NCBI GenBank assembly: GCA_963666055.2
Contig: CAXWPH010000015.1
Location: 1,056,001-1,120,000, forward strand
From: Acidobacteriota bacterium
Lineage (GTDB): Bacteria > Acidobacteriota > UBA890 > WLXD01
Direction: 5' to 3'
DNA: 64,000 nucleotides
Positions 14,874 through 55,252 of the stretch are shown here, one piece after another. The position numbers and the translations under genes are program-made. Numbering within the stretch: the stretch's first letter is position 1; every line of letters begins with the position of its first letter. The notes below the pieces were generated by a model. It worked only from the letters and a program-made list of their open reading frames with translations, ran no database searches and was not told the DNA's origin.

Positions 14874-16289
14874 ATGCAACTGGCATTAGGGATCAGCCTC
14901 GTCGTGTTCTTCACCCTCATGGTGGGGATCTCGATATGGGCAAGCAAGCGAATCCACACGGGCGAGGACTACATCGTCGCTGGCCGCCGCCTGTCGGGCA
15001 TCATGACGACGGCCACGATAATGGCCACCTGGTACGCCGCAGAGACCATCCTCGTCACCGCAGACACGGTACGAACCGACGGAATCCAGATAACGGTTCT
15101 CGAGCCTATCGGCATCGGACTCTGCCTGATCTTGGCCGGCGCGGTCTTTGCCCGGCGCCTTTGGGAAACGAAGCTCCTCACGCTTGCTGATGTCATCGGC
15201 GCGCGGTTCGGTACGATTGCCGAGAAGCTGCAGGCGTTCGTATCGATCAGCTACATCGGTTGGGTGGCGGTCCAGCTGCTGGGGCTTGCCGGCGTGCTCA
15301 ACGTCTATTTCGACCTGCCGATCTCGACGGGCGTCATCCTGATCACGACGGTGCTGACCCTGTACACGTTGGTCGGCGGCCTGTGGTCGGTCGCGATGAC
15401 CGACATCGTGCAGCTGGGCCTGCTGTTGATCGGTATCGTCATCCTCACGTTCCGTGTTCTTGCGGAGCTCGGTGACGGTCCGTTGTCCGGTACTGCCGCA
15501 CTGTTCGACCAGCTCGACGCCGAACTGCTCGTTTGGGTTCCCACCGGTTCGTTCGAAGAGATGCAAACGTGGGTCGGACTGATCTTCATTGGCGTGTTCG
15601 CCAACGTCGCGACGCAGGATCTCGCACAACGGATGTTCGCGGCGCGGTCCTCGAGAACCGCCGCACGCTCCACCGTCGCAGCCGGGATTCTGTACATCTT
15701 CTTCGGCGCGTTCCCGGTTCTCCTCGGACTTGCCGGCAACTTGCTTCTCGATGAGTCCGTGGTTCAGGGCGTCATCCCGGCATTGGCGGAGCAGCTATTT
15801 TCACCGACCCTCTCGGTCATCTTCGCGTTGACCCTCACGGCCGCGGTTACGTCCAGCGTAGACAGCGGGCTCTTGGCACCGGCCAGCGTCATAGCGCGGA
15901 ACGTCGTCGGCCCGATTCTCAAGGACCGGATCAGCCTCATTACCCTGACCCGAATCTCCGTCGTGGTCATTGCAGTGATCAGCGCCTGGCTGGCGCTGTC
16001 GGGCACGCGCGCCTTCGAGCTCATACAGGGCAGTTACGCCGCCACGCTGCCATCATTCATCGTGCTGTGGGCGGCGCTGTATCACAAGGAAGCACGCCCG
16101 ATACCCGGGACGCTGACACTGGTCGCCGGCATTGGCCTATGGCTCTATGAGATCATCCGCAACATCGCCTCGGGAGGCACGGACACGGAAGTGCTGTCGC
16201 CCGGTTTCCCCGTGATCTTGCTGGTGCTGTGCTTCGTGGTCTACTGGACCTCGCATTGGGTGGTCCGAAGGCTCGAGACGCGGGGCTAG
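14874..16289 (+). CDS. Sodium:solute symporter family transporter
   Basis: About 13 TM helices. DYIVAGR, YTLVGGLWSVAMTD and QRMFAA motifs. Confidence 0.92.
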   Translation: MQLALGISLVVFFTLMVGISIWASKRIHTGEDYIVAGRRLSGIMTTATIMATWYAAETILVTADTVRTDGIQITVLEPIGIGLCLILAGAVFARRLWETKLLTLADVIGARFGTIAEKLQAFVSISYIGWVAVQLLGLAGVLNVYFDLPISTGVILITTVLTLYTLVGGLWSVAMTDIVQLGLLLIGIVILTFRVLAELGDGPLSGTAALFDQLDAELLVWVPTGSFEEMQTWVGLIFIGVFANVATQDLAQRMFAARSSRTAARSTVAAGILYIFFGAFPVLLGLAGNLLLDESVVQGVIPALAEQLFSPTLSVIFALTLTAAVTSSVDSGLLAPASVIARNVVGPILKDRISLITLTRISVVVIAVISAWLALSGTRAFELIQGSYAATLPSFIVLWAALYHKEARPIPGTLTLVAGIGLWLYEIIRNIASGGTDTEVLSPGFPVILLVLCFVVYWTSHWVVRRLETRG

Positions 16290-16564
16290 CAGGCCGTGGT
16301 GAAAGTGTGGTGGGTCTGGCGACAGGGTCTTGCGAAGTGGAGGCAAGGAGAGAGGAGGTAGGCGATGGTTACCCCATCGTTGACGAGGAACGACGCAGCA
16401 TACGCGCGCAACCCCCTGTCGCCCGAAGGGTTACGGCGATTTGGGGCCATCTGCGATGTTGGCCTTTCTCGACGATGGCTAGGGCATCGCCTGTGTCAGG
16501 CCGCCTTGCATCTGGCCCCAACTCGCCGTAACCAGACCCACCACACTTTCACCACGGCCTGCTA
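16287..16564. mobile_element. 278-bp non-autonomous TIR element (MITE/REPIN-like), copy 1
   Basis: Perfect 33-bp TIR TAGCAGGCCGTGGTGAAAGTGTGGTGGGTCTGG. Internal hairpins. Homologous, in reverse orientation, to 54976-55252. Confidence 0.85.
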
Positions 16565-16595
16565 AGGGACGGCGAACACTACCGGGCGGCCTGCG

Positions 16596-16657
16596 TTGGA
16601 TCTCGTCTCCTGTGGCTGTAGGCTTCACGCGCTCACCCACCTCCCTCTGGTCGCGCC
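16596..16657 (+). promoter_or_regulatory. Sigma70-like kinase promoter TTGGAT-N17-TAGGCT plus leader
   Basis: Hexamers at 16596-16601 and 16619-16624, conserved upstream of the kinase starts. Confidence 0.75.
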
Positions 16658-19345
16658 ATGGAACCTGGTACTCGACTCGGCCACTACGAGATCCTCGCCC
16701 CACTCGGTGCAGGCGGTATGGGACAGGTGTACCGAGCACGCGATAACACCCTGGATCGTGATGTCGCCATCAAGGTGCTGCCGGAGGACTTCGCCACCGA
16801 CCCCGAGCGGCTGGCTCGCTTCGAGCGCGAAGCCAAGCTCCTCGCCTCGCTGAACCACCCCAACATCGCCACCATCCACGGGTTCGACGAGTCCGACGGT
16901 GTCCGCTTCATCGCCATGGAGCTGGTGGAAGGTCAAAGTCTCGTCGAGAGGATCGAAGCGACGGGTCGGATCGAGCTCGACGAGGCACTGGAGATCGCCC
17001 GCCAGATCGCGCTGGCGCTCGAAGCCGCCCACGAGGCCGGCGTCATCCATCGCGACCTGAAACCCGCCAACGTCCAGGTCGCACCTGATGGTGCGGTCAA
17101 GGTGCTCGACTTCGGGCTGGCTAAAGCCTACGAAGCGGACGCCAACGAGCCGTCAGCGGAACTAAGCCAATCGCCCACGATGATGGGGGCAACGGGAGCC
17201 GGCGTGATCATGGGGACGGCCCCCTACATGAGTCCAGAACAGGCGCGGGGCAAGCCGGTCGATAGGCGCAGCGACATCTGGGCCTTCGGCTGCGTGTTCT
17301 ACGAGATGTTGACGGGTCAACCGGCATTCAGCGGCGAAACCGCGACCGACACCCTGGCGGCGATTGTGCACGAAGAGCCGGACTGGGCCACTGTGCCAGA
17401 AGCGGTGCCAGCGATCATTCGGCACCTGTTGCGCCGATGCCTTGTGAAGGAACCGCGTGACCGTCTCCACGACATCGCCGATGCTCGCATCGAGATCATC
17501 AGCGCCGTCAGTGAGCCTGAGAGAGACTTCGCCGCCGTCACACCTGTGTCAGTTCGATCCTCTGGTTGGCGCCTAGCAGCACCCTGGCTCGTCGCTGCTG
17601 CCGCAGTTGTGGCCGGTGGCATTGGTACTTTCGGGGGTTGGGCACTCTACGAGCCGGCACCGGTCGCATCTCTGCCCCCGACCCGCTTCTCGGTGAACCT
17701 GCCAGCGCCCATCAGCAACACTGGGGTCGGCCCTCAAGTGGTATCCGCCATCTCATCAGACGGCCAGCGCATGGTATTTGCGCTGCAAGAAGGCGGCAGC
17801 ACGCGGCTCTACCTACGGGAAATGGACGCTACCGAAGCGGTACCGATCGCGGGCACCGAGGGAGGACGCTCCCCCTTCTTCTCCCCTGATGGCGACTCGA
17901 TCGCCTTCCATGATGGCATCCAGCTCAAGCAGGTCTCTCTGACGGGCGGTGGCCCGCTGACAATTACCCCCACTGCGGGCAATTTATTAGGTGGCTTCTG
18001 GGATGAAGACGACTGGATCTACTTTGCTACCAACATCATTCAGGCGCCGATGCGTGTTCCAGCCGCGGGAGGTCAGGCTGAGGAAATAGCAGCGGAGGGG
18101 ACCAAGCGGGTCGGCGGTCTGTACGCCTGGCCACAGCTTCTGCCCGACAAGGAAACGCTGCTGGTTACCGTGTACGAGGCAGATCAGGATTTCTGGAACA
18201 TCGCTCTAATATCACTGGTGACCGGAACAGAGAGGAGTCTCGGGCCTGGCGGCGGCGCCCGGTACTTGGCCTCAGGCCACCTCGTCTACACACAGCCCAC
18301 CGGCCGGGGGCGCCAGGGCACCTTCCCGGTCGTGATCGCGCCCTTCGACCTCGAACGGCTAGAGATCTCTGGCCCTGTCGTTCGGTTGCCTTTCGATGTC
18401 GCTTCGAGTTGGGGATATCCCGCTTTGTCTAGCTCCCGTAACGGCACGCTTGTCTACTTACCGCAGCCCGTCAACGCCCAGAGGTTGGCGTGGGTACAGC
18501 GCGATGGCAGCTCCACGCTTCTCGACATCGAAGGAGGTCAACTCCACGCTCCACGGCTCTCTCCCGAGGGCAGCCGGGTGGCTGTATCCGAAAACGCATT
18601 TGATCTGCTCACCTTTGATCTTGAGGGACGAGCGGTCGTCCACACGGGCGCCTCGGTAGGCGGAACAATCACGTACCCCGTCTGGAGCAATGACGGCAAT
18701 CGGCTGCTGTTCACGTCCAACACGAGTGGACCGTTGAATATCTATTCCTCTGCGGTGGACGGAAGCGATCTGGAGTTGCTCGTCGAGACTGAGACTCCCA
18801 TAGTTCCAACGTCGTTGTCGGAGGATGACACCCTGCTTTTTTACGAGGTCACTGCCACGCGAGGGCGCGACATCTGGGTGCTTCCGCCTGATGGCCCCCC
18901 TGTGCCCGTGCTGGCAACACCGGCCAACGAGCGTGCGCCAGCGTTTGCCCCCGGCGGCCGCTTCTTCGCCTACGTATCAGATGAAGAAGGGCAAGACGAG
19001 GTCTACGTACGGCGATACCCCGATACCGGTACCCGGTGGAAGGTCTCAGCAGGCGGTGGCCGTGGGCCAATGTGGTCACCCCTTGGACACGAGATTTTCT
19101 ATGCGATCGGCGACAGGATGATGGCGGTACCTGTCCAAACCGAGCCCAGCTTCCAGTCGGGCAGGCCAGTGGAGCTCTTTGAATCGCGCTTCACCCTCGA
19201 TCAGTTCGGCAACGCGAATTACGACATCGCCGATGATGGTCAGCGTTTTCTGATGGTCCAAGAGACAGCGCCGCCACTGACCCAGGTTCCGGTGATCATC
19301 AACTGGTTCGACGAGCTGAAGCGGCTCGTGCCGACGGACCCGTAG
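16658..19345 (+). CDS. Ser/Thr protein kinase with TM and TolB/PD40 beta-propeller
   Basis: Full kinase motif set (HRDLKPAN, DFG, YMSPE), PD40 repeats, NWFDELKRLVPTDP end. Confidence 0.95.
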   Translation: MEPGTRLGHYEILAPLGAGGMGQVYRARDNTLDRDVAIKVLPEDFATDPERLARFEREAKLLASLNHPNIATIHGFDESDGVRFIAMELVEGQSLVERIEATGRIELDEALEIARQIALALEAAHEAGVIHRDLKPANVQVAPDGAVKVLDFGLAKAYEADANEPSAELSQSPTMMGATGAGVIMGTAPYMSPEQARGKPVDRRSDIWAFGCVFYEMLTGQPAFSGETATDTLAAIVHEEPDWATVPEAVPAIIRHLLRRCLVKEPRDRLHDIADARIEIISAVSEPERDFAAVTPVSVRSSGWRLAAPWLVAAAAVVAGGIGTFGGWALYEPAPVASLPPTRFSVNLPAPISNTGVGPQVVSAISSDGQRMVFALQEGGSTRLYLREMDATEAVPIAGTEGGRSPFFSPDGDSIAFHDGIQLKQVSLTGGGPLTITPTAGNLLGGFWDEDDWIYFATNIIQAPMRVPAAGGQAEEIAAEGTKRVGGLYAWPQLLPDKETLLVTVYEADQDFWNIALISLVTGTERSLGPGGGARYLASGHLVYTQPTGRGRQGTFPVVIAPFDLERLEISGPVVRLPFDVASSWGYPALSSSRNGTLVYLPQPVNAQRLAWVQRDGSSTLLDIEGGQLHAPRLSPEGSRVAVSENAFDLLTFDLEGRAVVHTGASVGGTITYPVWSNDGNRLLFTSNTSGPLNIYSSAVDGSDLELLVETETPIVPTSLSEDDTLLFYEVTATRGRDIWVLPPDGPPVPVLATPANERAPAFAPGGRFFAYVSDEEGQDEVYVRRYPDTGTRWKVSAGGGRGPMWSPLGHEIFYAIGDRMMAVPVQTEPSFQSGRPVELFESRFTLDQFGNANYDIADDGQRFLMVQETAPPLTQVPVIINWFDELKRLVPTDP

Positions 19346-19473
19346 TGCTTGTTAGCCGCACGAAGTCGGGGATGATGTTTCCGCGCACGCCGCCGTGGAT
19401 GCAGCCCAGCGGTTGAACAGATATCCACCGCAGCGCACTGTGTCATGAGTCGTTCGCAAAGTATTCTTCGATC

Positions 19474-21684: not shown

Positions 21685-21731
21685 TGGGCAGCTGAGTCTC
21701 GCGAGCCGCGCCACGCGTTCCGCGTAGTTTA

Positions 21732-22604
21732 GTGGCGCCCCCCACTGAAGGAGCATCAAAGGTGAGTCAAGCGATTCGGTCGAAGCTTGCAGTTCATCAC
21801 GTCTTCGCAGATGCGTCCGTGCCCTTGCTGCTCATGGCAGTGGCGGTGACGATGATCGCCTGCAGCCCGACAGGCCAGCCATCGACATCGGAAGAGCCCA
21901 CTTCAGCGTCGCCACGGGATTCGGTCGTGACGGTGTTAGATCGCTCCGTCCTCGATGACCCTACGCGCCCCGATGCCGACCGCACCGAGGATAACGACCG
22001 CAAAGCGATCGATGTCTACGAGTGGCTGGGCATGCAGCCAGGCATGACGGTTGCAGATCTGTGGCCTGCCGAGGGTTACAACACTCACTTGATGTCACGC
22101 TTGATGGGCGCTGACGGGCACGTGTTGAGTGTCCTGGGTTTCTTCGGTCTGGACACCGACTACTCCACCAGGGAAGGCCTGCAGCAGCGTATCCAGGACC
22201 ATGGCCTGAGCAACGTCGAGCTACTCGACAAGCTTGCGGATATGAAATCGGAGAGCGTCGACGTGATGGTCGCGGTGCGCAACTATCACGATCTCGGGAC
22301 CGTCCCTGGCCCCTCGCGCCCCGAGGCAGTGGCCGAGATGCACCGAGCCCTGAAGCCGGGTGGAGTCGTGGGCATCGTCGAGGCAGCCAGCGACAAGCCG
22401 GGATGGGACCCGGAGGCGCATCGCCTCAACGAGCAGACCGTAATCGACGAGTTCACCGCCGGGGGCTTTGAGCTCTCAGGGCGTTCCGCCATGCTGGCGA
22501 ACCCAGCGGACGACCGTAGCGCCTCCGGCTTCGAGGAGGGCACCTACGACGGCCGCTACGACACCGATCGCTACCTGTTGAAGTTCACCAAGCCGACCAG
22601 CTGA
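21732..22604 (+). CDS. SAM-dependent methyltransferase lipoprotein
   Basis: PGMTVADL..GY, RNYHD and LKPGG motifs. Lipobox IAC. Stop codon lies inside a kinase-tail repeat. Start uncertain. Confidence 0.85.
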   Translation: MAPPTEGASKVSQAIRSKLAVHHVFADASVPLLLMAVAVTMIACSPTGQPSTSEEPTSASPRDSVVTVLDRSVLDDPTRPDADRTEDNDRKAIDVYEWLGMQPGMTVADLWPAEGYNTHLMSRLMGADGHVLSVLGFFGLDTDYSTREGLQQRIQDHGLSNVELLDKLADMKSESVDVMVAVRNYHDLGTVPGPSRPEAVAEMHRALKPGGVVGIVEAASDKPGWDPEAHRLNEQTVIDEFTAGGFELSGRSAMLANPADDRSASGFEEGTYDGRYDTDRYLLKFTKPTS

Positions 22605-22622
22605 AGCGGCTCGTGCCGACGG
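22594..22622 (+). repeat. Kinase-tail repeat copy
   Basis: CGACCAGCTGAAGCGGCTCGTGCCGACGG, 28/29 to the kinase 3' tail. Confidence 0.9.
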
Positions 22623-22763
22623 GAAGGCTCGCGCGCACATCTTCGACCGCCGATTCGGGATGGCCCAATGAGCGTAGACCCTTGATGATATGGCCGAGGT
22701 ATCTGTCGGAGGGCGCTTGATAGAGCTTCGGGTTCGGAACGACGTAAACCTCGGCGTCGAGCC

Positions 22764-23636: not shown

Positions 23637-23664
23637 CAGCAACGCCTGCCTGTAAACTCGAGCC

Positions 23665-26680: not shown

Positions 26681-26749
26681 CTCTCTCCTTGCCTCCACTT
26701 CGCAAGACCCTGTCGCCAGACCCACCACACTTTCACCACGGCCTGCTAG
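26681..26749 (-). repeat. 69-bp terminal fragment of the 275-bp element, forming the dipeptidase leader
   Basis: Reverse complement is identical to 16286-16354 and ends AAGGAGAGAG-C-ATG. Confidence 0.9.
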
Positions 26750-26834
26750 GGTCGTCGGATGAGGAGTGTACGCTTTCCGTCGCGCCACCTTCGAGTCGAT
26801 GTTGGCGCGTGTCGCAAGCTCCGGAGTGCTCCAT

Positions 26835-26858
26835 CACACTTTCACCACGGCCTGCTAG
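26835..26858 (-). repeat. Solo terminal repeat of the 275-bp element
   Basis: CACACTTTCACCACGGCCTGCTAG. Confidence 0.85.
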
Positions 26859-28620: not shown

Positions 28621-28651
28621 TCGTGCAACAACCTTGCCACCCCTCCTAATC

Positions 28652-30658
28652 CTAGGCGGGCAGCAACTCGTCTGTGCTGGAGGCTCTTCGCCGGGCGCGG
28701 CTTCGAACGAGGAGCTGCTCGCGGGCGGCTCGATGCGCCTCGTCGATGGCCGAGTCCGTGTGTGTCGAGGCAGCGGCATCGGAGTTGGCGATCGAAATCC
28801 GACCGAATCGCCGCCTTCCGACGACGCACGGCCGATCGTCGGGGGCGAACAGCGCCCACTCGATCGGATCGTCCAGGGTGTTGTAGCTATAGGCATAGCC
28901 GTGCGGCCAGCGATTCACGGTGATCGCTTCGATGTCGCGGGCCGGGTCGAATCCCCCACCCTCCAAGGTTCGACCGAGTTGGTCGCGGATGTTGCGCTCG
29001 AAGGTCTCGAAGGTGGCGGCCAGCAGATCCTCGCGCCCGATCCGATGTTGCTCCTTCTTCGGGTGTCCAGGAGCGCAAGGAGTCCTGTACATCTCCACGA
29101 TCATCGGATCGTCAGGCGATGTGGAGGGCTCGTAGTCACCGAACTGGATGGAGCGGCCCAGGTTCACCCCGCTGTGGTACATCCCCGGAGCGGTCACCGC
29201 TGAGATGCCCAGGTTCGTGAAGGCTGTCCAATTTCGGATGAGAACGCTAGTGGAGACGAGCGGCATCTTGACGCCATACATGAGCGCCGTCTTCTGCTCG
29301 TCGGGCATCTCGGGGCACAGGTGCGGGATGACCCCGTTGTAGCACCCCATTACACAGTGCGCCGCCCGTACCTTCTCGGCCTTGCCGCCGCGCACATAAG
29401 TAATCTCGACCTCGCGAGCGGTGTCGGGATCGCCTAGGTACCGGGCGGAGATCACCGTGCTGTTGAGGCGGATCCTGGCGTCGGAGCCGGCGCGGTCGAT
29501 GTGGTCGTAGGCCAGCCGCGACGTCATCGAGTCGTCCAGCGAGGTGCCCGGAAGCGCCTCGGGAATCATCGCCCGAACCAGCAGCCGGGCCACCGTCGCG
29601 TTGCCGTCGGGAAAGTAGATGTCCGGTCGTTCGTCCCACTCGTTCTCGCGACCGTGTTGTCCGCCGCCGATGTGGGCGAGGGGGCCGACGGGGGAGAGGG
29701 GTTCGAGGTTCATCCCCTGGAAGCCGGGATAGCCCTGCACCCATCCATAGAGCGCCGGATGGGCGTCGATGCCGACGCAGAAGCTGCCCTTCGGGCGGTC
29801 GTCGAAGAAGGCGATCACCTCGAGGTGAACCTTGGCGAGGTCGAGGAGGAAGTCCCGATAACTAATCCGCGCCAGGCGCTCCTTCTTGTCGGCATCCGAC
29901 AGCCCGGGCATATAGTCCGGGTTCGCACTGTCGTCGTAGAGCCGCGCGATGTCCCGCTGTGCCTCTGGAGACATCGGGGTCTGGGCGAGCCAATCGGCCC
30001 ATCCACCGGATTGCCCGCCGCGTCCCATCACCAGCCGATCCTCGCCGAACACCTCCTTGGCGAAGAACGTGGCGTTGCCGAGGCCCAACGATCCGTAGAA
30101 CCTCCTACCGGCAGTGCTGGTGGCATTTGCACTGTCGATGTCGATGCCGATCGCGGCGAGGAGCGTCCGGGAGACGGCGCTGTAGTGGCCCACGGACTCC
30201 AGGTACGACGTGCCGCCGGGCAGCATCAGCGTACGGCCTCGGTAGGTCATCTCGTTGCGCTTGGCATGGCCGCCGAAGTCATCGTGGTTGTCGAGCACCA
30301 GCACCCGTGCGCCGCGGCCCGCCGAGGTCAGGAAGAAATAGGCCGCCGAGAGCCCGCTCAGCCCCCCTCCGACCACCACCATGTCGTAGCTCTCACCCGT
30401 GTCGGCGACATCGGTCCAGGTTTTCCCGTCGCGCAGCGCATGGGCGACCTCGAACGAACCGGGGTGGCTGCCACGCATGCCAGTCAGAGCCGGCGGATAG
30501 TATTCCTGCGCCGGAGACGCAGAGGGCGTGCCCTCGCGCGCCGACAGCCAGCCAGGTGCGATCAGCGACCCCCCGATGGCAACCCCCACACCATTGACGA
30601 AGTCGCGCCGGCTGATATCCCGGTGCATCCCGAGATCACGATCCTTACTCCTGGACAT
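28652..30658 (-). CDS. Spermidine dehydrogenase (SpdH)-like FAD oxidoreductase, Tat, paralog A
   Basis: SRRDF signal. YYPPALTGMRGSH, GGGLSG, DNHDDFGGHAKRNE, FPDGNA and ITVNRWPHGY motifs. Confidence 0.88.
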   Translation of the reverse strand: MSRSKDRDLGMHRDISRRDFVNGVGVAIGGSLIAPGWLSAREGTPSASPAQEYYPPALTGMRGSHPGSFEVAHALRDGKTWTDVADTGESYDMVVVGGGLSGLSAAYFFLTSAGRGARVLVLDNHDDFGGHAKRNEMTYRGRTLMLPGGTSYLESVGHYSAVSRTLLAAIGIDIDSANATSTAGRRFYGSLGLGNATFFAKEVFGEDRLVMGRGGQSGGWADWLAQTPMSPEAQRDIARLYDDSANPDYMPGLSDADKKERLARISYRDFLLDLAKVHLEVIAFFDDRPKGSFCVGIDAHPALYGWVQGYPGFQGMNLEPLSPVGPLAHIGGGQHGRENEWDERPDIYFPDGNATVARLLVRAMIPEALPGTSLDDSMTSRLAYDHIDRAGSDARIRLNSTVISARYLGDPDTAREVEITYVRGGKAEKVRAAHCVMGCYNGVIPHLCPEMPDEQKTALMYGVKMPLVSTSVLIRNWTAFTNLGISAVTAPGMYHSGVNLGRSIQFGDYEPSTSPDDPMIVEMYRTPCAPGHPKKEQHRIGREDLLAATFETFERNIRDQLGRTLEGGGFDPARDIEAITVNRWPHGYAYSYNTLDDPIEWALFAPDDRPCVVGRRRFGRISIANSDAAASTHTDSAIDEAHRAAREQLLVRSRARRRASSTDELLPA

Positions 30659-30741
30659 ATGCCTCTCCAGATTCTCTAGCGGGGGACCGGCTCGGAGCGC
30701 CGGCTTTTCTCAAGTCCGAACCATGCGTAGATCGCATGCAA

Positions 30742-30777
30742 AATCTGCCGGTCCAGAGCCAATGTCAAGCTAGCCTG
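30742..30777 (-). promoter_or_regulatory. Sigma70-like promoter TTGACA-N17-GATTTT of SpdH-like paralog A
   Basis: About 30 bp identical to the block upstream of paralog C (45302-45338). Perfect -35. Confidence 0.55.
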
Positions 30778-32451: not shown

Positions 32452-32479
32452 CGACCCTCCGTGGTGATCATTCCGCGCT

Positions 32480-32753
32480 AGTGGCCTGTAACAGATAATC
32501 GTTGCATATCGTGGTGACGAAATGGGTGCGGATGCCAGGCGCGACGACGAGACGATGTTTGCCCATCGTGGAGGAGGAGCAACGCCGCAGACGGGCCGAT
32601 TTCGCCGCCATCCTGCGGACAGATGGGCAGTTGCGGGCGATCTCGGCGTTGCGGCTCGTCGACGATGCCCATTGCATCGCCTTCCTCGCCGCGCCTTGAT
32701 CTCACCCGCAAATCCCATCTGCGATATGCAACGATTATCTGTTACAGGCCACT
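32480..32753. mobile_element. 274-bp TIR element, copy 3 (same interior, different TIR)
   Basis: Perfect 32-bp TIR AGTGGCCTGTAACAGATAATCGTTGCATATCG, extended by CATTCCGC/GCGGAATG. Interior aligns with 54976-55252. Confidence 0.85.
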
Positions 32754-32889
32754 CGAGCGGAATGTGCTCTTGACCACCGGGGCCTCATATCAAAGGATCG
32801 GCGCGACAGCCTCGAAAGGACTTGTCGTCCCCGCTGCCGGGGTCGGACCTGCGCCGCAGCCACGATCAGGCGTCTCGAGGAGAGAAACG

Positions 32890-34890
32890 ATGAAAAAGAC
32901 GGATCCAGAGCTCGGAATGGATCGCGACATCACGCGGCGCGATTTCTTGAACGGCGCCAGTGTAGCGATCGGTGGCACGTTGTTCTCCGCAGCACCTGCA
33001 GTCGCTGGACCGCCGTCCGCGGCCGACGCCGCGCGGCGACCCCAGGCAGCGACGTTGCCACAGAGCTCAGCCGACTACTACCCGCCGGCATTGACCGGGC
33101 TGCGTGGCAGCCATGAGGGTTCCTACGAGGTCGCCCATGAGATGCGGACCGGCAAGACCTGGGACCGAGCCGAGGAGACCGGCGAGCTCTACGATCTGAT
33201 TGTGGTCGGTGGCGGGCTCAGCGGGCTGGCGGCGGCCTACTACTTCCGCAAGGCCTTGCCGGAATCCAAGGTCCTGGTTCTGGACAACCACGACGACTTC
33301 GGGGGGCACGCCAAGCGAAACGAGTTCAGGGTCGGCGACCGGCAGGTGATCGGTCACGGCGGCTCGGTCTATATCACCGGGGCCTACACGCCGGAGGGCA
33401 AGGCGTTGCTCGACGACATCGGCCTCAACGTCGAGCGTTTCCGCAAGCTGCCGGACTTCGACCGCGGCCTCTACGGCAGGATGGGTCTGCAACGCGGCGT
33501 GTTCTTCGACGAGGAGACCTTCGGCGTCGATCGACTCGCAGTCGGTGAGCCGAGCAGCTCGGTCAATTACATCGGCGCTGCGGGCAGCGCGCAGCCTTGG
33601 ACGGCGTTCCTCGCCAAGACCCCCCTCTCGCAAGCGGTACAACAGGACATCGTCAGGCTCCACGAGGACACCCGCGACTATCTTCCGGATTTGACCAAGG
33701 AAGAGAAGATCGAGCGGCTGCGCAAGATGAGCTATCAGGACTATCTTCTGAAGGTCGCGAAAGTGGACCCGGGCGTCATTCCCTACTTTCTCCGGCATGG
33801 CGACCCGAACGGCGCCGCCGGTATCGATTCCTATAGCGCCTGGGGAGCGCTGCGCTCCGGCCTGTTTCCCGGCCTCGGTGGTCTCGGGCTCGAGCGGCCC
33901 GACAGAAACTGGCTGGGTGAGGAGGACAACCCGCTGGAGGGCATCCACTTCCCCGACGGCAATGCCGGCATCGCCCGACTCATCGTCCGCTGGCTGATTC
34001 CGAAAGCGCTGCCCGGACACACCATGGAGGACTCGGTCGCGACCCCGGTTCGCTACGCCGCATTGGACGAGTCCGGAAGTCAGAGCCGCATCCGCCTCAA
34101 CAGCACCGTCGTGGGCGTGAAGCACGTGGGCGACAAGCGAACAGCAAACGAAGTAGAGGTGACCTATGTTCGCGACAACAAGGCCTACCGAGTGCGGGGC
34201 GGGACCTGCGTGCTTGCCTGCTACAACTCGATGATCCCGTATCTCTGCCCGGAGCTGCCGGGGGAGCAGAAAGAAGCACTGCACATGGCGGTGCGGCGAC
34301 CTTTCGTCTACACCAATGTCGTGGTGCGCGACTGGAAGGCATTCCACAAGCTCGGCGTGTCGGGCGTTCACTGCCCCGGCAGCTACTACGAATCGATCGA
34401 CCTGGACTGGGGCGTCAGCCTGGGTGACTACCAGTGCGCCCATACGCCGGACGAACCGATGTTCCTTCGCCTGATACGTTCGCCCATTGCACCGGGGCTC
34501 ACGGCCCGGGATCAATTCCGGGAGGGGCGGCAGGAGCTGCAGACGACCACGTTCGAGACCTACGAGCGGAATATCAGAGAGCTGTTGAGCCGAGTGCTGG
34601 AGGGCGGGGGCTTCGACCCGGCGCGCGACATCGCTGCCATCACCGTCAACCGCTGGCCGCATGGCTATGCCGGGGGAGCGAACGATCTCTACGATCCGGA
34701 GTGGTCGTACGATCAGGCACCGTGGGTAAAGGGGCGCCAGCGGTTCGGACGCATCACCGTTGCCAACTCCGACGCAGCCGCAGTATGCCTGATGCAGGCG
34801 GCCTTCGATCAGGCACACCGCGCTGTCGGAGAGCTGCTCACCGACGTCATCCGGCCCGAGTTCCAGTACCCGTGGGCCGAGCGAACCTGA
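32890..34890 (+). CDS. SpdH-like FAD oxidoreductase, Tat, paralog B
   Basis: TRRDFLN signal and the same motifs as paralog A. GAGGAG RBS. Confidence 0.88.
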   Translation: MKKTDPELGMDRDITRRDFLNGASVAIGGTLFSAAPAVAGPPSAADAARRPQAATLPQSSADYYPPALTGLRGSHEGSYEVAHEMRTGKTWDRAEETGELYDLIVVGGGLSGLAAAYYFRKALPESKVLVLDNHDDFGGHAKRNEFRVGDRQVIGHGGSVYITGAYTPEGKALLDDIGLNVERFRKLPDFDRGLYGRMGLQRGVFFDEETFGVDRLAVGEPSSSVNYIGAAGSAQPWTAFLAKTPLSQAVQQDIVRLHEDTRDYLPDLTKEEKIERLRKMSYQDYLLKVAKVDPGVIPYFLRHGDPNGAAGIDSYSAWGALRSGLFPGLGGLGLERPDRNWLGEEDNPLEGIHFPDGNAGIARLIVRWLIPKALPGHTMEDSVATPVRYAALDESGSQSRIRLNSTVVGVKHVGDKRTANEVEVTYVRDNKAYRVRGGTCVLACYNSMIPYLCPELPGEQKEALHMAVRRPFVYTNVVVRDWKAFHKLGVSGVHCPGSYYESIDLDWGVSLGDYQCAHTPDEPMFLRLIRSPIAPGLTARDQFREGRQELQTTTFETYERNIRELLSRVLEGGGFDPARDIAAITVNRWPHGYAGGANDLYDPEWSYDQAPWVKGRQRFGRITVANSDAAAVCLMQAAFDQAHRAVGELLTDVIRPEFQYPWAERT

Positions 34891-36790: not shown

Positions 36791-36990
36791 TCGCCAGCAG
36801 GCGGTTCGCGCCAGGTCTCGGGGCTCTTGAGCAGATGCACGTTTGCCCGGTGTCCCAATTCGGCCATGCCTCCGTGATGAGGAGCTTGCCCACCCCGTGC
36901 GCGTTGTTGCGCCCGGTTCTCGGTGGACCGGCCGGTCATGGTCCGCCGGCGATGCGGTTGACGAGCGGGCCATGGCCTTCGCGGCCGCGG

Positions 36991-37053
36991 TTGGATCTCG
37001 CCCGCGCTGGCGATAGGCTGCAGGCGCTCAACCCACCTGCCGCTGGTAGTGCC
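36991..37053 (+). promoter_or_regulatory. Kinase promoter TTGGAT-N17-TAGGCT plus leader
   Basis: Hexamers at 36991-36996 and 37014-37019. Confidence 0.75.
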
Positions 37054-41331: not shown

Positions 41332-41451
41332 GCCACACGGCCGCAGACTGGTCGCGGGATCATGCCCGCGGCTTCCCAGCATGGACTGCGCTGACCGAGT
41401 TGAAGACTGCGTCGGATCTCGCACGCTCCGGCGACCGGTTTCAGGCGCAGC

Positions 41452-43140: not shown

Positions 43141-43198
43141 CTCAGCTCAAGCTCAAAAAGTCGTTTGTGTGCTGGCACGGGCTACACACGCCCCGGTC

Positions 43199-45220
43199 CT
43201 AGCCGCGCAGCAACTCGTCTGTAATGGAGGTTCTTCGCCGGGCGCGGCTTCGAACGACGAGCTGCTCGCGGGCGGCTCGATGCGCCTCGTCGATGGCTGA
43301 GTCGGTGTGGGTGGAGGCAGCGGCATCGGAGTTGGCGATCGAAATCCGACCGAATCGCCGCCTCCCGACGACGCACGGCCGATCGTCGGGGGCGAACAGC
43401 GCCCACTCGATCGGATCGTTCAAGGTGTCGTAGCTATAGGCATAGCCGTGCGGCCAGCGATTCACGGTGATCGCTTCGATGTCCCGGGCTGGGTCGAATC
43501 CCCCACTCTCTAGGGTTCGACTGAGTTGGTCCCGGATGTTGCGCTCGAAGGTCTCGAAGGTGGTGGTCAATAGCTCCTCTCGCCCGATGCGATGCTGCTC
43601 CTTCTTCGGGTGTCCAGGAGCGCAAGGCACCCTGGTCATCTGCAGAATCATCGGGTCGTCAGGCGATGTGGAGGGTTGGTAGTCACCGAACTGCACGGAG
43701 CGGCCGAGGCTGACCCCGCTGTGGTACATCCCCGGAGCAGTCACCCTCGAGATGCCGAGGTTCGTGAAGGCCGTCCACTGACGGATGAGAACCCTGGTGG
43801 AGACCATGGGCATCTTGACGCCATACATGAGCGCCACCTTCTGCTCGTCGGACATCTCGGGGCACAGGTGCGGGATGACGCCGTTGTAGCACGCCATCAC
43901 GCAGTGATCCGCCCGTACCTTCTCGGCCTTGCCGCCGCGCACATAGGTGATCTCGACCCCGCGGGCCGCGTCGGGATCGCCCAGGTGCTGGACAGATATG
44001 ACTGTGCTGTTGAGACGGATCCGGGCATCGGAGCCGGCGCGGTCGATCCGGTCGTACGCCAGGCGCGACATGATCGAGTCCTCCAGCGAGGTGCCCGGAA
44101 GCGCATCGGGAATCATCCCCCGAACCAGCAGCCGGGCCACCGTTGCGTTGCCGTCCGGAAGGTAGATGTTCGGTCCTTTGTTCCACTCGCTCTCGCGACC
44201 GTGTTGTCCGCCCCCGATGTGGCTGAGGGGGCTCACGCGAGGGGAGGGCTCGAGGTTCATTCCCTGGAAGCCGGGATAGCCCTGGGCCCATCCATAGAGC
44301 GCCGGATAGCCGTCGATGCCGACGCAGAAGCTGCCCTTCGGGCGGTCATCGAAGAACGGGATCACATCGGGGTGGACCTTGGCGAGATCGAGGAGGAAGT
44401 CCCGATAACTGATCCGCGCCAGGCGCTCCTTCTTGTCTGCATCCGACAGTCCGGGCATATAGTCCGAGTTTGCGCCGTCATCGTAGAGCCGCGCGATGTC
44501 GCGCCGCGCTTCCGGAGACAGCGGGGTCTGGGCGAGCCAATCGACCCATCCGCTGCTTCCGGATCCCTCTCGCGCTCCTCGTCCCTTAACGAGCCGATCC
44601 TCGCCGCCGAACACCTCTTTGGCGAAGAACGTGGCGCCGCCAAGGCCCAGCGATCCGTAGAACGCCATACCCGCGGCGCTGGTGGCATTCGCACTTTCCA
44701 CGTCGATGCCGATCGCGGCGAGGAGCGTCTTGGAGACGGTGCTGTATTGACCCACGGACTCCAGGTACGACGTGCCGCCGTTGAGCATCAGCGTACGGCC
44801 TCGGTAGGTCATCTCGTTGCGCTTGGCGTGGCCGCCGAAGTCATCGTGGTTGTCGAGCACCAGCACCCGTGCGCCGCGGCCCGCCGAGGTCAGGAAGAAG
44901 TAGGCTGCGGAGAGCCCGCTCAGCCCCCCTCCGACCACCACCATGTCGTAGCTTTCGCCCGTGTCGGCGACATCGGTCCAGGTTTTTCCGTCGCGCAACG
45001 CATGGGCGACCTCGAACGAACCGGGGTGGCTGCCGCGCATTCCAGTCAGGGCCGGTGGGTAGTACTCCTGGGCCCGGGACGGATGGGACGTGCGCTCTCG
45101 CGCCGACAGCCAGCCAGGTGCGATCAGCGACCCCCCGATGGCAACCCCCACACCATTGACGAAGTCGCGTCGGCTGATATCCCGGTGCATCCCGAGATCA
45201 CGATCCGCATTCTTGGACAT
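43199..45220 (-). CDS. SpdH-like FAD oxidoreductase, Tat, paralog C (recent duplicate of A)
   Basis: Near-collinear with 28652-30658, with long identical stretches. Confidence 0.88.
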   Translation of the reverse strand: MSKNADRDLGMHRDISRRDFVNGVGVAIGGSLIAPGWLSARERTSHPSRAQEYYPPALTGMRGSHPGSFEVAHALRDGKTWTDVADTGESYDMVVVGGGLSGLSAAYFFLTSAGRGARVLVLDNHDDFGGHAKRNEMTYRGRTLMLNGGTSYLESVGQYSTVSKTLLAAIGIDVESANATSAAGMAFYGSLGLGGATFFAKEVFGGEDRLVKGRGAREGSGSSGWVDWLAQTPLSPEARRDIARLYDDGANSDYMPGLSDADKKERLARISYRDFLLDLAKVHPDVIPFFDDRPKGSFCVGIDGYPALYGWAQGYPGFQGMNLEPSPRVSPLSHIGGGQHGRESEWNKGPNIYLPDGNATVARLLVRGMIPDALPGTSLEDSIMSRLAYDRIDRAGSDARIRLNSTVISVQHLGDPDAARGVEITYVRGGKAEKVRADHCVMACYNGVIPHLCPEMSDEQKVALMYGVKMPMVSTRVLIRQWTAFTNLGISRVTAPGMYHSGVSLGRSVQFGDYQPSTSPDDPMILQMTRVPCAPGHPKKEQHRIGREELLTTTFETFERNIRDQLSRTLESGGFDPARDIEAITVNRWPHGYAYSYDTLNDPIEWALFAPDDRPCVVGRRRFGRISIANSDAAASTHTDSAIDEAHRAAREQLVVRSRARRRTSITDELLRG

Positions 45221-45301
45221 AGCCTCTCCGATTCTCTGACGCGCGAAACTTCGCGGAACGCCGGCTTTTCTGAAGTCCGACCCATATGTAGATGGCGCGC
45301 A

Positions 45302-45338
45302 AGTTCTGCCGGTCCAGAGCCAATGTCAAGCTAGCCTG
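45302..45338 (-). promoter_or_regulatory. Promoter TTGACA-N17-GAACTT of paralog C
   Basis: Same block as 30742-30777. Confidence 0.55.
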
Positions 45339-48594: not shown

Positions 48595-48632
48595 GTGTTG
48601 GAGCTGGGCGATGCTTTCTGGAGAAAGACAGC

Positions 48633-51600: not shown

Positions 51601-52028
51601 GTGCGGTCCGAGACGAAGGCGATCGTCGTCCCGTCGGGCGAGTAGCTGGGCTGGTAGTTGACCGCGACGCCGCTGTTCTGAGTCAGGCACTCGGCAGCGC
51701 CGCCGTCGGCGGAGACTCGGTAGATGTGTCCGAGCAGGTCGAAGACGATCCAGCGGCCGTCGGGCGAGATGTCGACGGACATCCAGGTGCCCTCGCGGGT
51801 CTCGAAGTCGATGGTTCGGGTTCGTCCGCGCGCCGCGGTGACGTCCCACGCCGGGGCATCCTGGCCCGCCGCCTCCTGGCCGGAGCCCTGGACGAGCTCG
51901 TCCACCGACTGCGGTCGATGATCGCGGGCAAAGCCCACTGGCGCCACGCCGACCGCGGTTGCCAGCAACGCCACCGCCGCGAGGGTCGGGGCGAGTCCGA
52001 GCCGTCTCTGGGATCCGTCGTTCTTCAT
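48633..52028 (-). CDS. Secreted amidohydrolase with N-terminal TolB/PD40 propellers
   Basis: EGTWMSVDISPDG, PD40 repeats, PGFIDMHAH and GSIEVGKLADL motifs. Confidence 0.9.
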   Translation of the reverse strand: MKNDGSQRRLGLAPTLAAVALLATAVGVAPVGFARDHRPQSVDELVQGSGQEAAGQDAPAWDVTAARGRTRTIDFETREGTWMSVDISPDGRWIVFDLLGHIYRVSADGGAAECLTQNSGVAVNYQPSYSPDGTTIAFVSDRTNQPNLWLMDSDGSNPRAVFRDDAVRVAKPAWTPDGQYILVQRRPGGIWMYHREGGDGISILGDEFDSAGWPSVSLDSRYLYFDLAKDVGLVGAVGGARQIRRAELSSGEVIKITAGIPNTQIRLSSGGGYAAEISPNGRWLAFARRIPNGTVSFKGHRYGPRTALWLRDLQSGVERLLMDPIENDRVESRGWDVLPGYSWDLEGRSIVISQGGKIRRVDVASGEVSTVPFTASVHRVISERAYAPFRIDDEPFDAKFLRWHTLSPDGSRLAFEAAGRIWVMDRDPESSLQRGEPRRLTPESFEPFELSPAWSPDGRFIAFTSADEAARGHVWKASVEGGAPEQLTETEGEYLNPVWSPSGRDIVAVQGSGVTSHGRGWMFNPYYQLVNVSASGGSAPSEVITMINPPSEVGVYGVSRRSITQPSFGPAGRVYFAEDQENADGDAVVALVSVRRDGGDERVHMTFPYADEIAPSPDGRWVAFQEGDNAYITAFPAFGTGGKPPQIEKRHGNLPVRQVSFEGGMFLRWRSANELEFGSGNRHHLYRVDTREVQSTEARLKLSRRIPDEAIAIALTGARIVTLDGDVVIDSGTVVVRGSRIVCVGECVLDVDRVVDVTGTTIIPGFIDMHAHHHRETRGVIGKKSFEAAVYLAYGVTTDLDNSMWSQNIFTTAELVRSGAILGPRTFSTGPPLYRGDAFRQNEISSYEVAEQNIRRLQSWGAVSLKQYMQPRRDQRQWISDVARKVGLMVTSEGGDLNYNLGMIMDGQTGWEHPLGYLPLYSDVTTFFGRAEATYSVTFGVGFAPWNENYWYAESNVWEDEKLMSWMPWRTILPHARRRPLRPATDYSFPYLAQAVADIIEAGGHGAIGAHGQGHGIAPHWEVWMAASAMGPLGALKLASQQGAYFLGVQEDLGSIEVGKLADLLVLRSNPLDDIRNTADIRYVMQGGILFEAETLDEVWPEQRPYGARPWMEQDALRADDRPIDYWDRRQ

Positions 52029-52169
52029 CCAAGATCTCCTGTGTACGCGTCGAGCTTTGCCGGCCGTGCGTTCCGTTGATGGGGTATCGGTTTCTACTGG
52101 TACGTGAGTAGTAGGAACCTGATATCCCAACGGCCGAGCCTAGCCATGGACCAATGCAGAAGCAACGAG

Positions 52170-52222
52170 ACATGGTTCTTCGCCTACGTCTCCAACGTCA
52201 CCGGACGCTCAGGGACCTACGA
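52170..52222 (+). pseudogene. PD40 repeat remnant
   Basis: WFFAYVSNVTGRSGTY resembles RFFAYVSDEEGQDEVY of the kinase at 16658. Confidence 0.45.
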
Positions 52223-52279
52223 TGGGGGTGGAAAGCTCGATAGTGAAGTACCTCCGAGGGCGAGCCAATCCTCGGCCCG

Positions 52280-52341
52280 TTGGATCTCGTGCGCTCCGGC
52301 GATAGGCTTCAGGCGCTTATCCGCCCTACTGCGGCTGCGCC
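52280..52341 (+). promoter_or_regulatory. Kinase promoter TTGGAT-N17-TAGGCT plus leader
   Basis: Hexamers at 52280-52285 and 52303-52308. Confidence 0.75.
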
Positions 52342-54978
52342 ATGGAACCCGGCACCAAACTTGGCCCCTACAAGATCCTCGAACCGCTCGGTGCGGGCGG
52401 TATGGGGGAGGTGTACCGTGCCCGCGACACGACGTTGGATCGTGATGTTGCGATCAAGGTTCTTCCTGCGGCCCTTTCGACCGATCCGGAGCGCATAGCG
52501 CGCTTCAAGCGGGAAGCTCGCACCCTAGCTGCACTCGACCACCCAGGCATCGTGACCATCTACTCGGTCGAGGACAGCGACGAGCTGCCCTTCATCACGA
52601 TGCAACTGGTGCAGGGCAAGGCGCTCAACAAGCTGATCCCTGAAGGTGGTCTGGCGTCGGACAGGTTCTTCGAGCTCGCCGTTCCGTTGACCGAGGCCGT
52701 CGGCGCTGCGCATCAACACGGAGTGATTCACCGCGACATCAAGCCGGCCAACGTCATGGTGACGGACGACGGTCGGTTGAAGGTGCTGGATTTCGGCATC
52801 GCCAAGCTATTCGAGGGATCCTCGGACGACACGCAGGCAGTTACGGATCTGACACACGCAGGTCAGACCATCGGCACCGTCCCCTATATGTCGCCTGAGC
52901 AGCTGTTGGGCGAGCCCACTGATGCGCGCAGCGACGTGTTCTCGCTCGGGGTGACGCTGTACGAGATGGCCACGGGAACGAGGCCGTTCGACGGCAACAC
53001 GACGGCGGCGGTGTTCGATGCAATCCTCCACCATACGCCGATCTCTGCTGAGCAACTCAACGGGCGACTGTCGCCGCATCTCGGCCAAGTGATCGCACGA
53101 ATGCTCGAGAAGGACCCAGAGGCCCGTTTTCAATCCACTGAGGAGTTGCTGGAGGCTCTCGGGCAGCTGGGGCTCGACGCCAGCCCGGCGCGCAAGTGGG
53201 TCTTCCAAGCGGTAGTCGCAGCGGCGGCGCTGTTGGCCTTCGTTGCTGTCGGGGTTGGTCTCGTCTGGCTGGTTCGGGAATGGCGCGGTGCACCTTCGGA
53301 GCCCACGATACCCGGGCTGGTCAATCCGGTTCAGGTCACGAGCGCAACCGGCGTCGAGGACTATCCGGCTTGGTCGCCGGACGGACGGACGCTCGCATAC
53401 CAGTCCAACCAGGACGGTGATTGGGACATCTGGATCATCCAACCCGGAGGTGGCGGCGCGCTCAACCGCACCGCGGATCACGCCGGCGAAGATCGATATC
53501 CCAGCTATTCACCGGACGGGCAGTCGATCGCGTTCTGGTCCGAGAGAGACGGCGGCGGCTACTTCACCATGGGCGCCTTGGCAGGATTACCTCGCAAGCT
53601 CGTCGACACCGGGCGCCCAGCCGATGTCCGTCATATCCCCATGAGCCCGCCTCAGTGGTCGGGCGACGGGACGCAGTTGTTATACGTGGTGCGCTCCTGG
53701 GCGGACAGCCACGCCGAGATCATGAACCTCGCGTCAGGTTCGACGGTGCGCGTCGACCTTCTGGGCAAGGTCCCCGGCTACGATCCGGTTTGGTCGCCGG
53801 ACGGCTCACATGTTGCCTACGTCGCGGGGTGGCAGCGCGAGTACGAGACCTCGCAGATTCGCATCCTACGGCTCTCTGACCGCGAGAGCTGGGGAATCAC
53901 ATCCGATGCGCTACACCATCTGAGCCCGACGTGGGTGAGCGATAGCATCCTGTGCTACCTCGTCAACCGTGGCTCCAGCATGGATCTGTGGTGCCAGCGC
54001 CTGGACGCAACAGGGCGCCCCGATGGCGAACCCGTCCAGGTCACTGCCGGCGTTGGCATTCGGCAGGCGATGTTCTCGCCTGACAGATCGCGCCTGGCCT
54101 ACTCGAAAGGACGGTTCGTGGCCAACCTCTGGCGCCTGCCGATACTGTCGACCCGCATGGCGACCTGGGCCGATGCCGAGCAGCTCACATTCGATCAGGC
54201 TTGGGTCGAGTTCGTCGACGTATCGCCGGACGCGGCGCACTTGGCAGTCAGCACCGATCGCTCCGGGAACAAGGACATCTGGATGCTGCCAGCGACGGGT
54301 GGCGAGATGCGCCAGCTGACTACCGACATTCGACCCGACTGGTCTCCTCAGTTCTCCCCCGATGGTTTCGAGATTGCCTTCTACGCCTATCGCGATGGCG
54401 CCCGCTCTCTCCGAATCATGCCGACGGCCGGGGGTGCGGCGCTGCCGGTGCCGCTGGTGGGTGTCGGCGAGCAGTTTGTACCGGCCTGGTCGCCAGACGG
54501 GCGCCGTTTAGCTTTCCGCGCCGTAGGTCCCGACTTCAACAACGACATCTACCTGGCGCCACGCGAGGGTGGCACGCCGCTGCGCATGACCGTCCACGAG
54601 GCCGGTGACCATTCGGCCACGTGGTCGCCAGACGGCGACTGGATCGCCTTTGGTTCAAACCGAGGTGATGGGGTGAGAATCTGGCGCGTACCTGTCCAGG
54701 GAGGCCCTCCTGAGGCCTTCAGCGCGCCTGGCCTCGGTTACCACGATTGGTCGCCGGACGGTGCCTACATCTATGCTCTCGGCGTCGATCACTGGGCCGG
54801 TAACGTCTGGGAGATCGATGTGCTTGACGGTGCCGCGCGCCAAGTAACCGACTTGTCTGGTCGGCGCGGCGCACCGGGCAGCGAGGCGCTCGCCACCGAC
54901 GGCAACTACCTCTACTTCACCTGGGAGGAGGCCCTTGGTGACATCTGGATCATGGATGTGGCTCAGGGCGAGGACTAG
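52342..54978 (+). CDS. Ser/Thr protein kinase with TM and TolB/PD40 propellers (different C-terminal subfamily)
   Basis: HRDIKPAN, DFG, YMSPE and many WSPDG repeats. Ends GDIWIMDV. Confidence 0.95.
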   Translation: MEPGTKLGPYKILEPLGAGGMGEVYRARDTTLDRDVAIKVLPAALSTDPERIARFKREARTLAALDHPGIVTIYSVEDSDELPFITMQLVQGKALNKLIPEGGLASDRFFELAVPLTEAVGAAHQHGVIHRDIKPANVMVTDDGRLKVLDFGIAKLFEGSSDDTQAVTDLTHAGQTIGTVPYMSPEQLLGEPTDARSDVFSLGVTLYEMATGTRPFDGNTTAAVFDAILHHTPISAEQLNGRLSPHLGQVIARMLEKDPEARFQSTEELLEALGQLGLDASPARKWVFQAVVAAAALLAFVAVGVGLVWLVREWRGAPSEPTIPGLVNPVQVTSATGVEDYPAWSPDGRTLAYQSNQDGDWDIWIIQPGGGGALNRTADHAGEDRYPSYSPDGQSIAFWSERDGGGYFTMGALAGLPRKLVDTGRPADVRHIPMSPPQWSGDGTQLLYVVRSWADSHAEIMNLASGSTVRVDLLGKVPGYDPVWSPDGSHVAYVAGWQREYETSQIRILRLSDRESWGITSDALHHLSPTWVSDSILCYLVNRGSSMDLWCQRLDATGRPDGEPVQVTAGVGIRQAMFSPDRSRLAYSKGRFVANLWRLPILSTRMATWADAEQLTFDQAWVEFVDVSPDAAHLAVSTDRSGNKDIWMLPATGGEMRQLTTDIRPDWSPQFSPDGFEIAFYAYRDGARSLRIMPTAGGAALPVPLVGVGEQFVPAWSPDGRRLAFRAVGPDFNNDIYLAPREGGTPLRMTVHEAGDHSATWSPDGDWIAFGSNRGDGVRIWRVPVQGGPPEAFSAPGLGYHDWSPDGAYIYALGVDHWAGNVWEIDVLDGAARQVTDLSGRRGAPGSEALATDGNYLYFTWEEALGDIWIMDVAQGED

Positions 54979-55252
54979 CAGGGTGCTGAAGAACTCTGGT
55001 GGGTCTGGTTACGGCGTCGTGGGGCCAGATGCAAGCCGGCGCGACGCAGGCGATGCTTGTCGTATCGTCCAGGAGGGCCAACGCTGCAGATGGCTCCACG
55101 ACGCCGTAACCCGATGGGCACGTGGGGGTTGCTGGCGATCTCAGCGTCAGAGCTCCTCGACGATGACCCTGGCATCGCCCTCGTCGCTCTTCCTTGATCT
55201 CGCCAGCAAGACCCACCTGCCAGACTCATCAGAGTTTTTCAGCACCCTGCTA
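54976..55252. mobile_element. 277-bp TIR element, copy 2
   Basis: 33-bp TIR (30/33) TAGCAGGGTGCTGAA(G/A)AACTCTG.... Starts at the kinase TAG stop. Homologous to 16287-16564. Confidence 0.85.

Follow-up and report, generated by a model that had tools for sequence, protein, structure and literature searches.

Three ~275-bp repeats in a 64,000-nucleotide stretch of an Acidobacteriota genome (the window) are confirmed as members of a MITE family. They have the features of bacterial MITEs: they are short, transposase-less and multicopy, and they carry terminal inverted repeats (TIRs), a TA footprint and ends like those of insertion sequences (ISs). Based on the results below, we conclude that this is a real and abundant MITE system, in which the conserved part is a predicted strand-specific hairpin and the ends appear to be borrowed.

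Three elements in the window and their family in the genome

The three elements are present where a sequence-only reading of the window had placed them, with the span of the second corrected by one base at each end. All are 276-278 bp long, have no stop-free stretch above 92 codons, and share one layout, in which two TIRs enclose a structured unit, a short linker and a second, inverted unit. A covariance model gives exactly two opposite-strand units per element, in agreement with the earlier description of an inverted dimer of one unit, and one weak match (18 bits) in the rest of the window. The copies align end to end once copy 1 is reversed. The elements themselves are listed without a strand and their parts with one.

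Copy 1 (16287-16564, 278 bp counting both TA) is a family A dimer whose ends match an IS1182-like IS of the related genome G011. The element proper (16289-16562) lies between duplicated TA at 16287-88 and 16563-64. The TAG of its left TIR (16287-16319, +) is the stop codon of a sodium:solute symporter ORF (14820-16289), and its right TIR (16532-16564, -) matches the left one at 33/33 positions. The class 2 unit (16324-16417, +) has its purine-rich strand on + and a CAAGG that starts 57 nt after the T of the TA; the class 0 unit (16435-16528, -) has its purine-rich strand on -, with an offset of 56 nt from the right end. Copy 2 (32479-32754, 276 bp) is a family B dimer with IS630-like ends and units of class 8 (32515-32606, +) and class 3 (32625-32718, -); its right TA has decayed to TC, and it is flanked by a small host palindrome (32469-32476 and 32757-32764). 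Copy 3 (54976-55252, 277 bp) is a family C dimer with units of class 1 (55012-55105, +) and class 6 (55123-55216, -). Its left TAG is the stop of a kinase ORF (52342-54978), and its ends match an IS5-family element of the related genome G007, including the difference between left and right. At 6/6 window ends, the CAAGG-type conserved motif begins 56-57 nt inward from the T of the terminal TA. The 33-nt arms of copies 2 and 3 match at 32/33 and 30/33 positions, respectively. Between copies, TIR identity is 24/33 (1 vs 3), 14/33 (1 vs 2) and 15/33 (2 vs 3), so that the odd copy is the second (32480 in the earlier numbering) rather than the third, whose TIRs had been called almost unrelated.

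The window also holds a truncated family A copy (26681-26749, -), which reproduces the reverse complement of 16286-16354 over 69 nt without a mismatch, a solo family A end (26820-26858, -) and a short solo family A end (10645-10666, -). Other repeats lie nearby. A ~50-nt repeat occurs at 16586-16638, 36981-37033, 41410-41448, 52270-52322 and 61654-61706; the occurrences at 16586, 36981 and 52270 immediately precede long ORFs, of which two are Ser/Thr kinase-PD40 genes, and the repeat is probably a duplicated promoter or leader. A ~2-kb duplication (28650-30777 and 43197-45338) has 88-95% identity, and a distant inverted paralogue of this stretch, with a FAD/NAD-binding domain, lies near 33070-34670.

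An iterated profile search of the whole genome found 292 units in 165 clusters, of which 99 are inverted dimers, 55 contain one unit and 11 are larger or nested, and end probes gave 484 matches compared with 0 in the reversed genome. Four end-types account for 129 distinct TIR-bounded copies, counted at 140-600 bp (106 A, 10 B, 9 C and 4 D); the window elements represent three of them (A, B and C). A bounded copy contains either one ~95-nt unit or two in inverted orientation, and each end-type goes with a particular pair of unit classes. One of the four TIR types lies within 70 nt upstream of 268/292 units; on reading, most of the other 24 have decayed ends or are truncated, and one has a fifth end type. 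The earlier proposal that the TIRs are interchangeable holds between subfamilies. They are not freely variable, being conserved inside each subfamily, as in family A, where 83 dimers share one TIR consensus.

The commonest flank is CTAG at both ends (95/129 copies), a sequence that is scarce in this genome (5391 observed vs ~18900 expected). Two A copies sit in the loop CTAG of other copies, for which intact copies represent the empty sites. In these filled/empty pairs (98/100 and 99/101 in the comparisons) a single TA/CTAG is present when the site is empty and two when it is filled. Among the 129 copies tested, the filled/empty evidence consists of these two nested copies, which supply the TA footprint that the empty-site check called for, and one weak D-family case. 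TA and CTAG duplication are indistinguishable at CTAG sites; the base outside the TA varies on both sides in family A, which favours a 2-bp TA duplication. The target is TA, mostly inside CTAG. At the orthologous flanks in relatives there were 0 units in 10 loci, and since synteny breaks there these are not clean empty sites. Contigs of 4 read runs contained no joint skipping a whole element and no piece spanning the stretch, and neither result counts as evidence.

Several composite arrangements were seen in the genome. Recombinants of A with C and of C with D are found at C15:429339-429600 and C15:2034449-2034713, a C-type monomer is nested in an A copy at G000:C15:682748-683160, and a B copy stands head-to-head with an A copy, with a CTAG common to both, at C14:148090-148628. 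TIR-only elements of 52-113 bp, which have no unit, are located at G000:C7:203908-203959, C11:306975-307064, C11:216309-216421 and C15:1412056-1412107, and 142 A-type end matches genome-wide are unpaired. Four weak same-strand profile matches in a row at G000:C11:159991-160470 are probably chance or a tandem repeat. A replication-strand bias of A dimers (26 vs 51) was rejected as confounded with gene direction and dependent on a noisy local skew.

Ends shared with insertion sequences

By sequence comparison, the ends of these elements match those of unrelated ISs in relatives: A ends match an IS1182-like element, C ends an IS5, and B and D ends an IS630. The IS of G011 is 1.5 kb long and has a 489-aa DUF772 frame with IS1182 as its best NCBIfam match (158 bits, below the cut-off of 270). 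Over the 20 nt after the TA, the A end agrees with it at 18/20 and 17/20 positions, and the A end was present at 4/4 fetched loci of this IS with 0 and 1 mismatches in its first 20 nt. The 1.34-kb IS5 of G007 (IS5_4, 270 bits; cut-off 140) bears the C end, with 18/20 identity at the matching end, and its two ends differ where the family C ends differ (5 loci). The IS630 of G007 (292 bits; cut-off 100) matches the D end at 18/20 and the B end at 15/20, compared with only 4-8/20 for A or C ends against IS630. IS630-type ends together with the TA target hold for B and D (14/129 copies) and fail for A and C. The earlier reading had asked whether the ends of a known IS would explain all copies; each end type does have a counterpart among the ends of ordinary DDE ISs, and no one IS accounts for all copies. 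As A and C are matched by DUF772-group ISs and B and D by IS630, at least two unrelated transposase lineages would supply the ends.

The sole IS630 of this genome agrees with the D end at 16/20 and the B end at 14/20. No IS with A- or C-type ends was found in this genome (95.7% complete), though A is the most abundant family, and a PF13751 search of it gave 0 matches. Two candidates for an autonomous partner were rejected: the genome's own 331-aa IS5 (8 matches) has unrelated ends (3-8/20), and the one long A-type pair read, at C11:302462-303780, consists of two separate decayed copies on either side of an ordinary host ORF. Units at L096 and L171 carry ends starting like this own IS5 (GGAACCTCTG), an end type that is absent from the units of this genome.

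No unit lies inside the matched IS1182-like, IS5 and IS630 elements. In the 24 DUF772 loci searched there was one unit, at L075, where no matching IS ends were found, and in the 30 IS630 loci searched units occurred only in abutting MITEs. An origin as a deletion derivative of one IS was rejected because no IS locus searched has a unit within it; the interior is therefore not a deletion remnant of any of the ISs examined.

In 8/9 fetched loci, the G007 IS630 (370 aa) lies directly against an end of type A or C, namely at L037, L044, L047, L050, L052, L054, L056 and L057, with such ends on both sides in three cases, and a target preference beyond CTAG is possible for this IS. The 5.1-Mb G007 genome has 146 DUF772 matches, mostly of a 383-aa frame, which represents a very large IS expansion; C-like ends occur at its loci L086 and L088.

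The end matches and the footprint together point to cut-and-paste mobilisation by matched transposases, which we regard as very probable. For the origin of new end types we favour, with some reserve, a route in which an IS would insert into the terminal CTAG of an element, the TIR would be replaced through exchange in register at the CTAG start that both share, and fold-back would then copy the new TIR to the other arm. Such end swapping likely follows adjacency, as in the IS630-end abutments, the stacked or nested copies and the recombinants. In-register exchange would hold the offset between end and core constant, so the fixed distance need not be functional or selected.

Predicted fold and distribution of the unit

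The structure of the unit was analyzed in an alignment of 69 rows, made up of 67 of 86 non-redundant units and two window units. In it, 85.4% of cells are paired, compared with 61.2% in shuffles. Covariation, for which the earlier note had asked, was 0.544 vs 0.150 when shuffled (0/500) and at most 0.125 in slid controls. RNAalifold predicted nearly the same pairs, and the stems that the sequence-only reading had quoted were recovered in copies 1 and 3. When copies 1, 2 and 3 were folded as ssDNA, the z-scores were -13.7, -9.8 and -10.2, respectively, and 0/200 shuffles were as good.

The predicted fold is a rod broken by G·A positions. One non-canonical position is occupied by C·A in 44, A·G in 30, A·A in 5 and C-G in 0 of 79 cases, and two middle positions have either standard pairs or tandem G·A (23/79). 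In the outer stem, G·A (115) exceeds its mirror C·T (12), G·T (53) exceeds A·C (12), and tandem GA/GA occurs in 25/69 rows compared with 0/69 for TC/TC. These values should not be read as probabilities, since the alignment consists of related rows and its invariant columns and strand were set by the search pattern. That pattern imposed neither the outer stem nor the C·A/A·G coupling. The purine strand is favoured in 65/69 rows by an RNA energy model and in 48/69 by a DNA model. The prediction of a fold on one strand only, together with this purine-strand asymmetry, agrees with the single-strand structure suggested by the earlier reading. In the commonest unit class (114/266), the middle stem has lost most standard pairs.

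Template switching creates paired Watson-Crick changes without selection. Because it would make only standard pairs, we infer that the unit is under selection as a single-strand fold. Non-canonical pair types such as those found here are typical of RNA motifs. The linker between the units (~16419-16433 in the window) is mostly CCC-TTC-GGG in family A (60 of the matches listed). One strand of it can be read as the RNA tetraloop C-UUCG-G and the other as the DNA mini-hairpin C-GAA-G, so this motif does not decide between DNA and RNA. A kink-turn was rejected, as the bulge geometry, by inspection, departs from the kink-turn consensus.

Relatives of copy 3 were found in 22/41 genomes searched, among them 20/26 genomes of the order, and no element was found in G006 and G009, two relatives of the same family. 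The covariance model matches at least 34/101 genomes of the phylum, a lower bound because scoring covered 41 candidates in each genome. A pattern scan of GTDB gave at least 112 loci; among the matches listed (112 loci), record titles assign 90 to Acidobacteriota, leave 3 unlabelled and assign 19 to others. These others include, among the matches listed, Omnitrophota (6), Actinomycetota (3), Bdellovibrio (2), Planctomycetota (2), and one each of Myxococcota, Nitrospirae, Gemmatimonadota, Spirochaetaceae, Deltaproteobacteria and Ca. Spongiisociaceae. Among the matches listed, the unit thus spans about ten phyla by record label; the labels are those of MAGs, some of which may be misbinned. The ends of the matches listed comprise 40 different 10-mers in 17 greedy clusters, some of which are only one-base offsets. 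A YTAR motif lies 56-59 nt before the core in 72 of the 113 listed matches with enough upstream sequence; 38 have no YTAR in the stretch examined and 3 have it elsewhere. In searches of IMG/VR viruses, the unit pattern gave 0 matches, PLSDB plasmids contained no match for copy 3 and INPHARED phages none for copy 2. The 135 flanking ORFs picked from 80 loci have no common family and include no DDE or Y1 transposase at E<=1e-12; one is IstB-like and one is a tyrosine recombinase.

Alternative readings, known systems and meaning

The orientation of the elements bears on whether the unit of this same MITE works as RNA, a reading in which read-through transcripts would fold, insertions would be harmless in operons or mRNA processing would be changed, and the inverted dimer would guarantee one sense unit whichever way it is inserted. 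Family A dimers between co-directional genes have one orientation to transcription in 38/45 cases (p 3e-6; genes for the orientation tests were called with a rough predictor built for this analysis), and this split of 38 vs 7 suggests that transcription or RNA matters. Copies lie between subunit genes of gyrase, RNA polymerase and ferredoxin oxidoreductase (L098, L099 and L127), the non-canonical pairs are RNA-like with a stronger strand preference in the RNA energy model, and RNA roles of other MITEs are reported in the part of PMC2229807 available to us. A copy end falls at a stop codon in 56/129 cases compared with 559/2515 non-genic CTAG sites, an enrichment that fits this reading and is explained by the CTAG target plus selection against gene disruption. 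Single-unit copies, on the other hand, are 8 sense and 6 antisense among the GTDB matches listed and 5 vs 12 in this genome. Pooled, they are 13 sense vs 18 antisense (the GTDB part among the matches listed), and this lack of sense bias favours a DNA-level role and argues against a host-mRNA role at each site. The distribution is also patchy for an RNA function, with at least 34/101 phylum genomes matched and none found in G006 and G009, and we consider an RNA role unlikely, if still a serious candidate. The unit might instead be functionless, inherited from one old MITE, with its paired changes produced by fold-back template switching in a quasi-palindrome. Such switching needs no selection, and the middle stem mostly lacks standard pairs in the commonest class (114/266); however, the G·A positions persist across records of about ten phyla (in the matches listed) while stems and TIRs are replaced, and switching should erase mismatches. 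The C·A/A·G covariation with 0/79 C-G and the purine-strand asymmetry are likewise unexplained by template switching, and an idle unit therefore appears improbable to us.

Two further readings are very improbable. Strand-specific imperfect hairpins in inverted pairs resemble REP doublets and HUH substrates and would suit the REPIN-like element that had been proposed from the sequence, with an HUH nuclease (RAYT or IS200-type) reading the hairpin and driving the movement. A Y1 gene (PF01797) is, however, absent from this genome (0/1) and present in 1/26 genomes of the order, with no unit at that locus, whereas the element is in 20/26 genomes of the order; the ends match DDE ISs, there is a TA footprint, and no Y1 or DDE family was found in the flanking ORFs at the threshold given above. 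REPIN/RAYT systems have two inverted imperfect hairpin units and many intergenic copies, which the present elements share; unlike them, these elements have no RAYT and have long TIRs matching DDE ISs as well as the footprint. The strong covariation would also fit a stand-alone, amplified non-coding RNA gene family, and relatives in Geobacter have been annotated as predicted short RNA elements (accessible part of PMC2700814). Against this, the Rfam check gave 0 matches in the window at gathering score, with only sub-threshold miRNA/snoRNA hairpin matches by E-value; no sigma-70-like promoter or terminator was found around copy 1, there is no conserved gene neighbourhood, and the orthologous flanks in relatives have 0 units in 10 loci. 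Units lie nearly always within TIRs (268/292 with one <=70 nt away), which makes a stand-alone gene, also raised by the earlier reading, unlikely; its proposal of a mobile element is supported by the TA footprint, the IS-matching ends and the 129 bounded copies.

To our knowledge, the Correia/NEMIS and ERIC families are confined to one clade. According to the part of PMC2229807 available, they are structured MITEs with an internal module, like the present family, with RNA folds proposed to affect neighbouring mRNA and, for ERIC, an effect of orientation. The internal module of Correia is an IHF site (same part of PMC2229807), unlike here, where no site with <=1 mismatch to the IHF consensus was found in the three copies. 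RUP of Streptococcus pneumoniae (107 bp, about 108 copies) is likewise gene-less and intergenic, with a TA target and TIRs similar to those of an IS630 element presumed to mobilise it, and is often inserted at other mobile elements; it is described in that part of PMC2229807 with one end type and no other known structure or function motif. Here, in contrast, one unit bears several IS ends, with IS630, IS5 and IS1182-like ends on one conserved unit across phyla. IS630/ISY100 duplicates TA (accessible part of PMC2170065), and a title cited there states that IS630 prefers TA within CTAG. The present elements share the TA target, and their B and D ends resemble IS630 ends; they differ in that IS630/ISY100 is autonomous and has no conserved hairpin unit, and in that the A and C ends are unrelated to IS630.

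A further likeness is to Gmet_R1001-R1024, which were annotated in Geobacter metallireducens as 24 "predicted short RNA elements" (Aklujkar 2009, PMC2700814, seen in part). They are intergenic and multicopy, and their central palindrome, GRCGTAG-loop-CTACGCC, reads as the apical stem variant present here; the TAG/TAC apical variant occurs in 18/69 rows of our alignment. In supplement S4, compared by eye as the reverse complement rather than by computation, many rows have CAAGGC and AACGC flanks and some a GAGGA arm. Unlike the present units, the Geobacter elements are shown at ~113 nt with a longer middle in most rows, and the available part of their description makes no mention of TIRs, a TA footprint, an IS link, a dimer or non-canonical pairs. 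A literature search covering titles and starts of abstracts, with few subscription journals and ISfinder outside its scope, found no report of a core shared among several IS ends. The supplements of a MITE census (bioRxiv 10.1101/2024.01.18.576219, seen in part) may list these elements; the accessible part of PMC2996986 added nothing on the family.

We propose that these are gene-less, TA-flanked elements moved in trans by unrelated DDE ISs, and that the unit likely aids their spread as ssDNA, an explanation whose chances we judge to be even. In it, the hairpin would act as ssDNA at the replication fork or in the transcription bubble, a step that falls slightly short of even in our estimate. 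With an inverted dimer, each strand would carry a unit able to fold. The reader of the hairpin would be a host protein, since a recognition motif common to the IS630 and IS5/IS1182 transposases is unlikely. More tentatively, the ~95-nt sheared-G·A fold might be a cross-phylum selfish booster of transposition, independent of any one transposase and read by a conserved host factor. If so, this passenger would swap only its ends among IS630, IS5, IS1182-like and further IS families, with the hairpin rather than the TIR as the unit of selection.

As a rule, it is the ends that define a MITE family, and the middle is disposable; here, the middle is conserved and the ends appear to be replaced by those of available ISs. 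For RNA-motif screens, the family is a caution, as its motif passes covariation tests yet lies in mobile DNA. If the hairpin is idle, this is an abundant but ordinary MITE. If it is functional, it would be a compact cis-element compatible with unrelated transposases, and the Geobacter repeats that have been noted as unexplained since 2009 would gain an identity.
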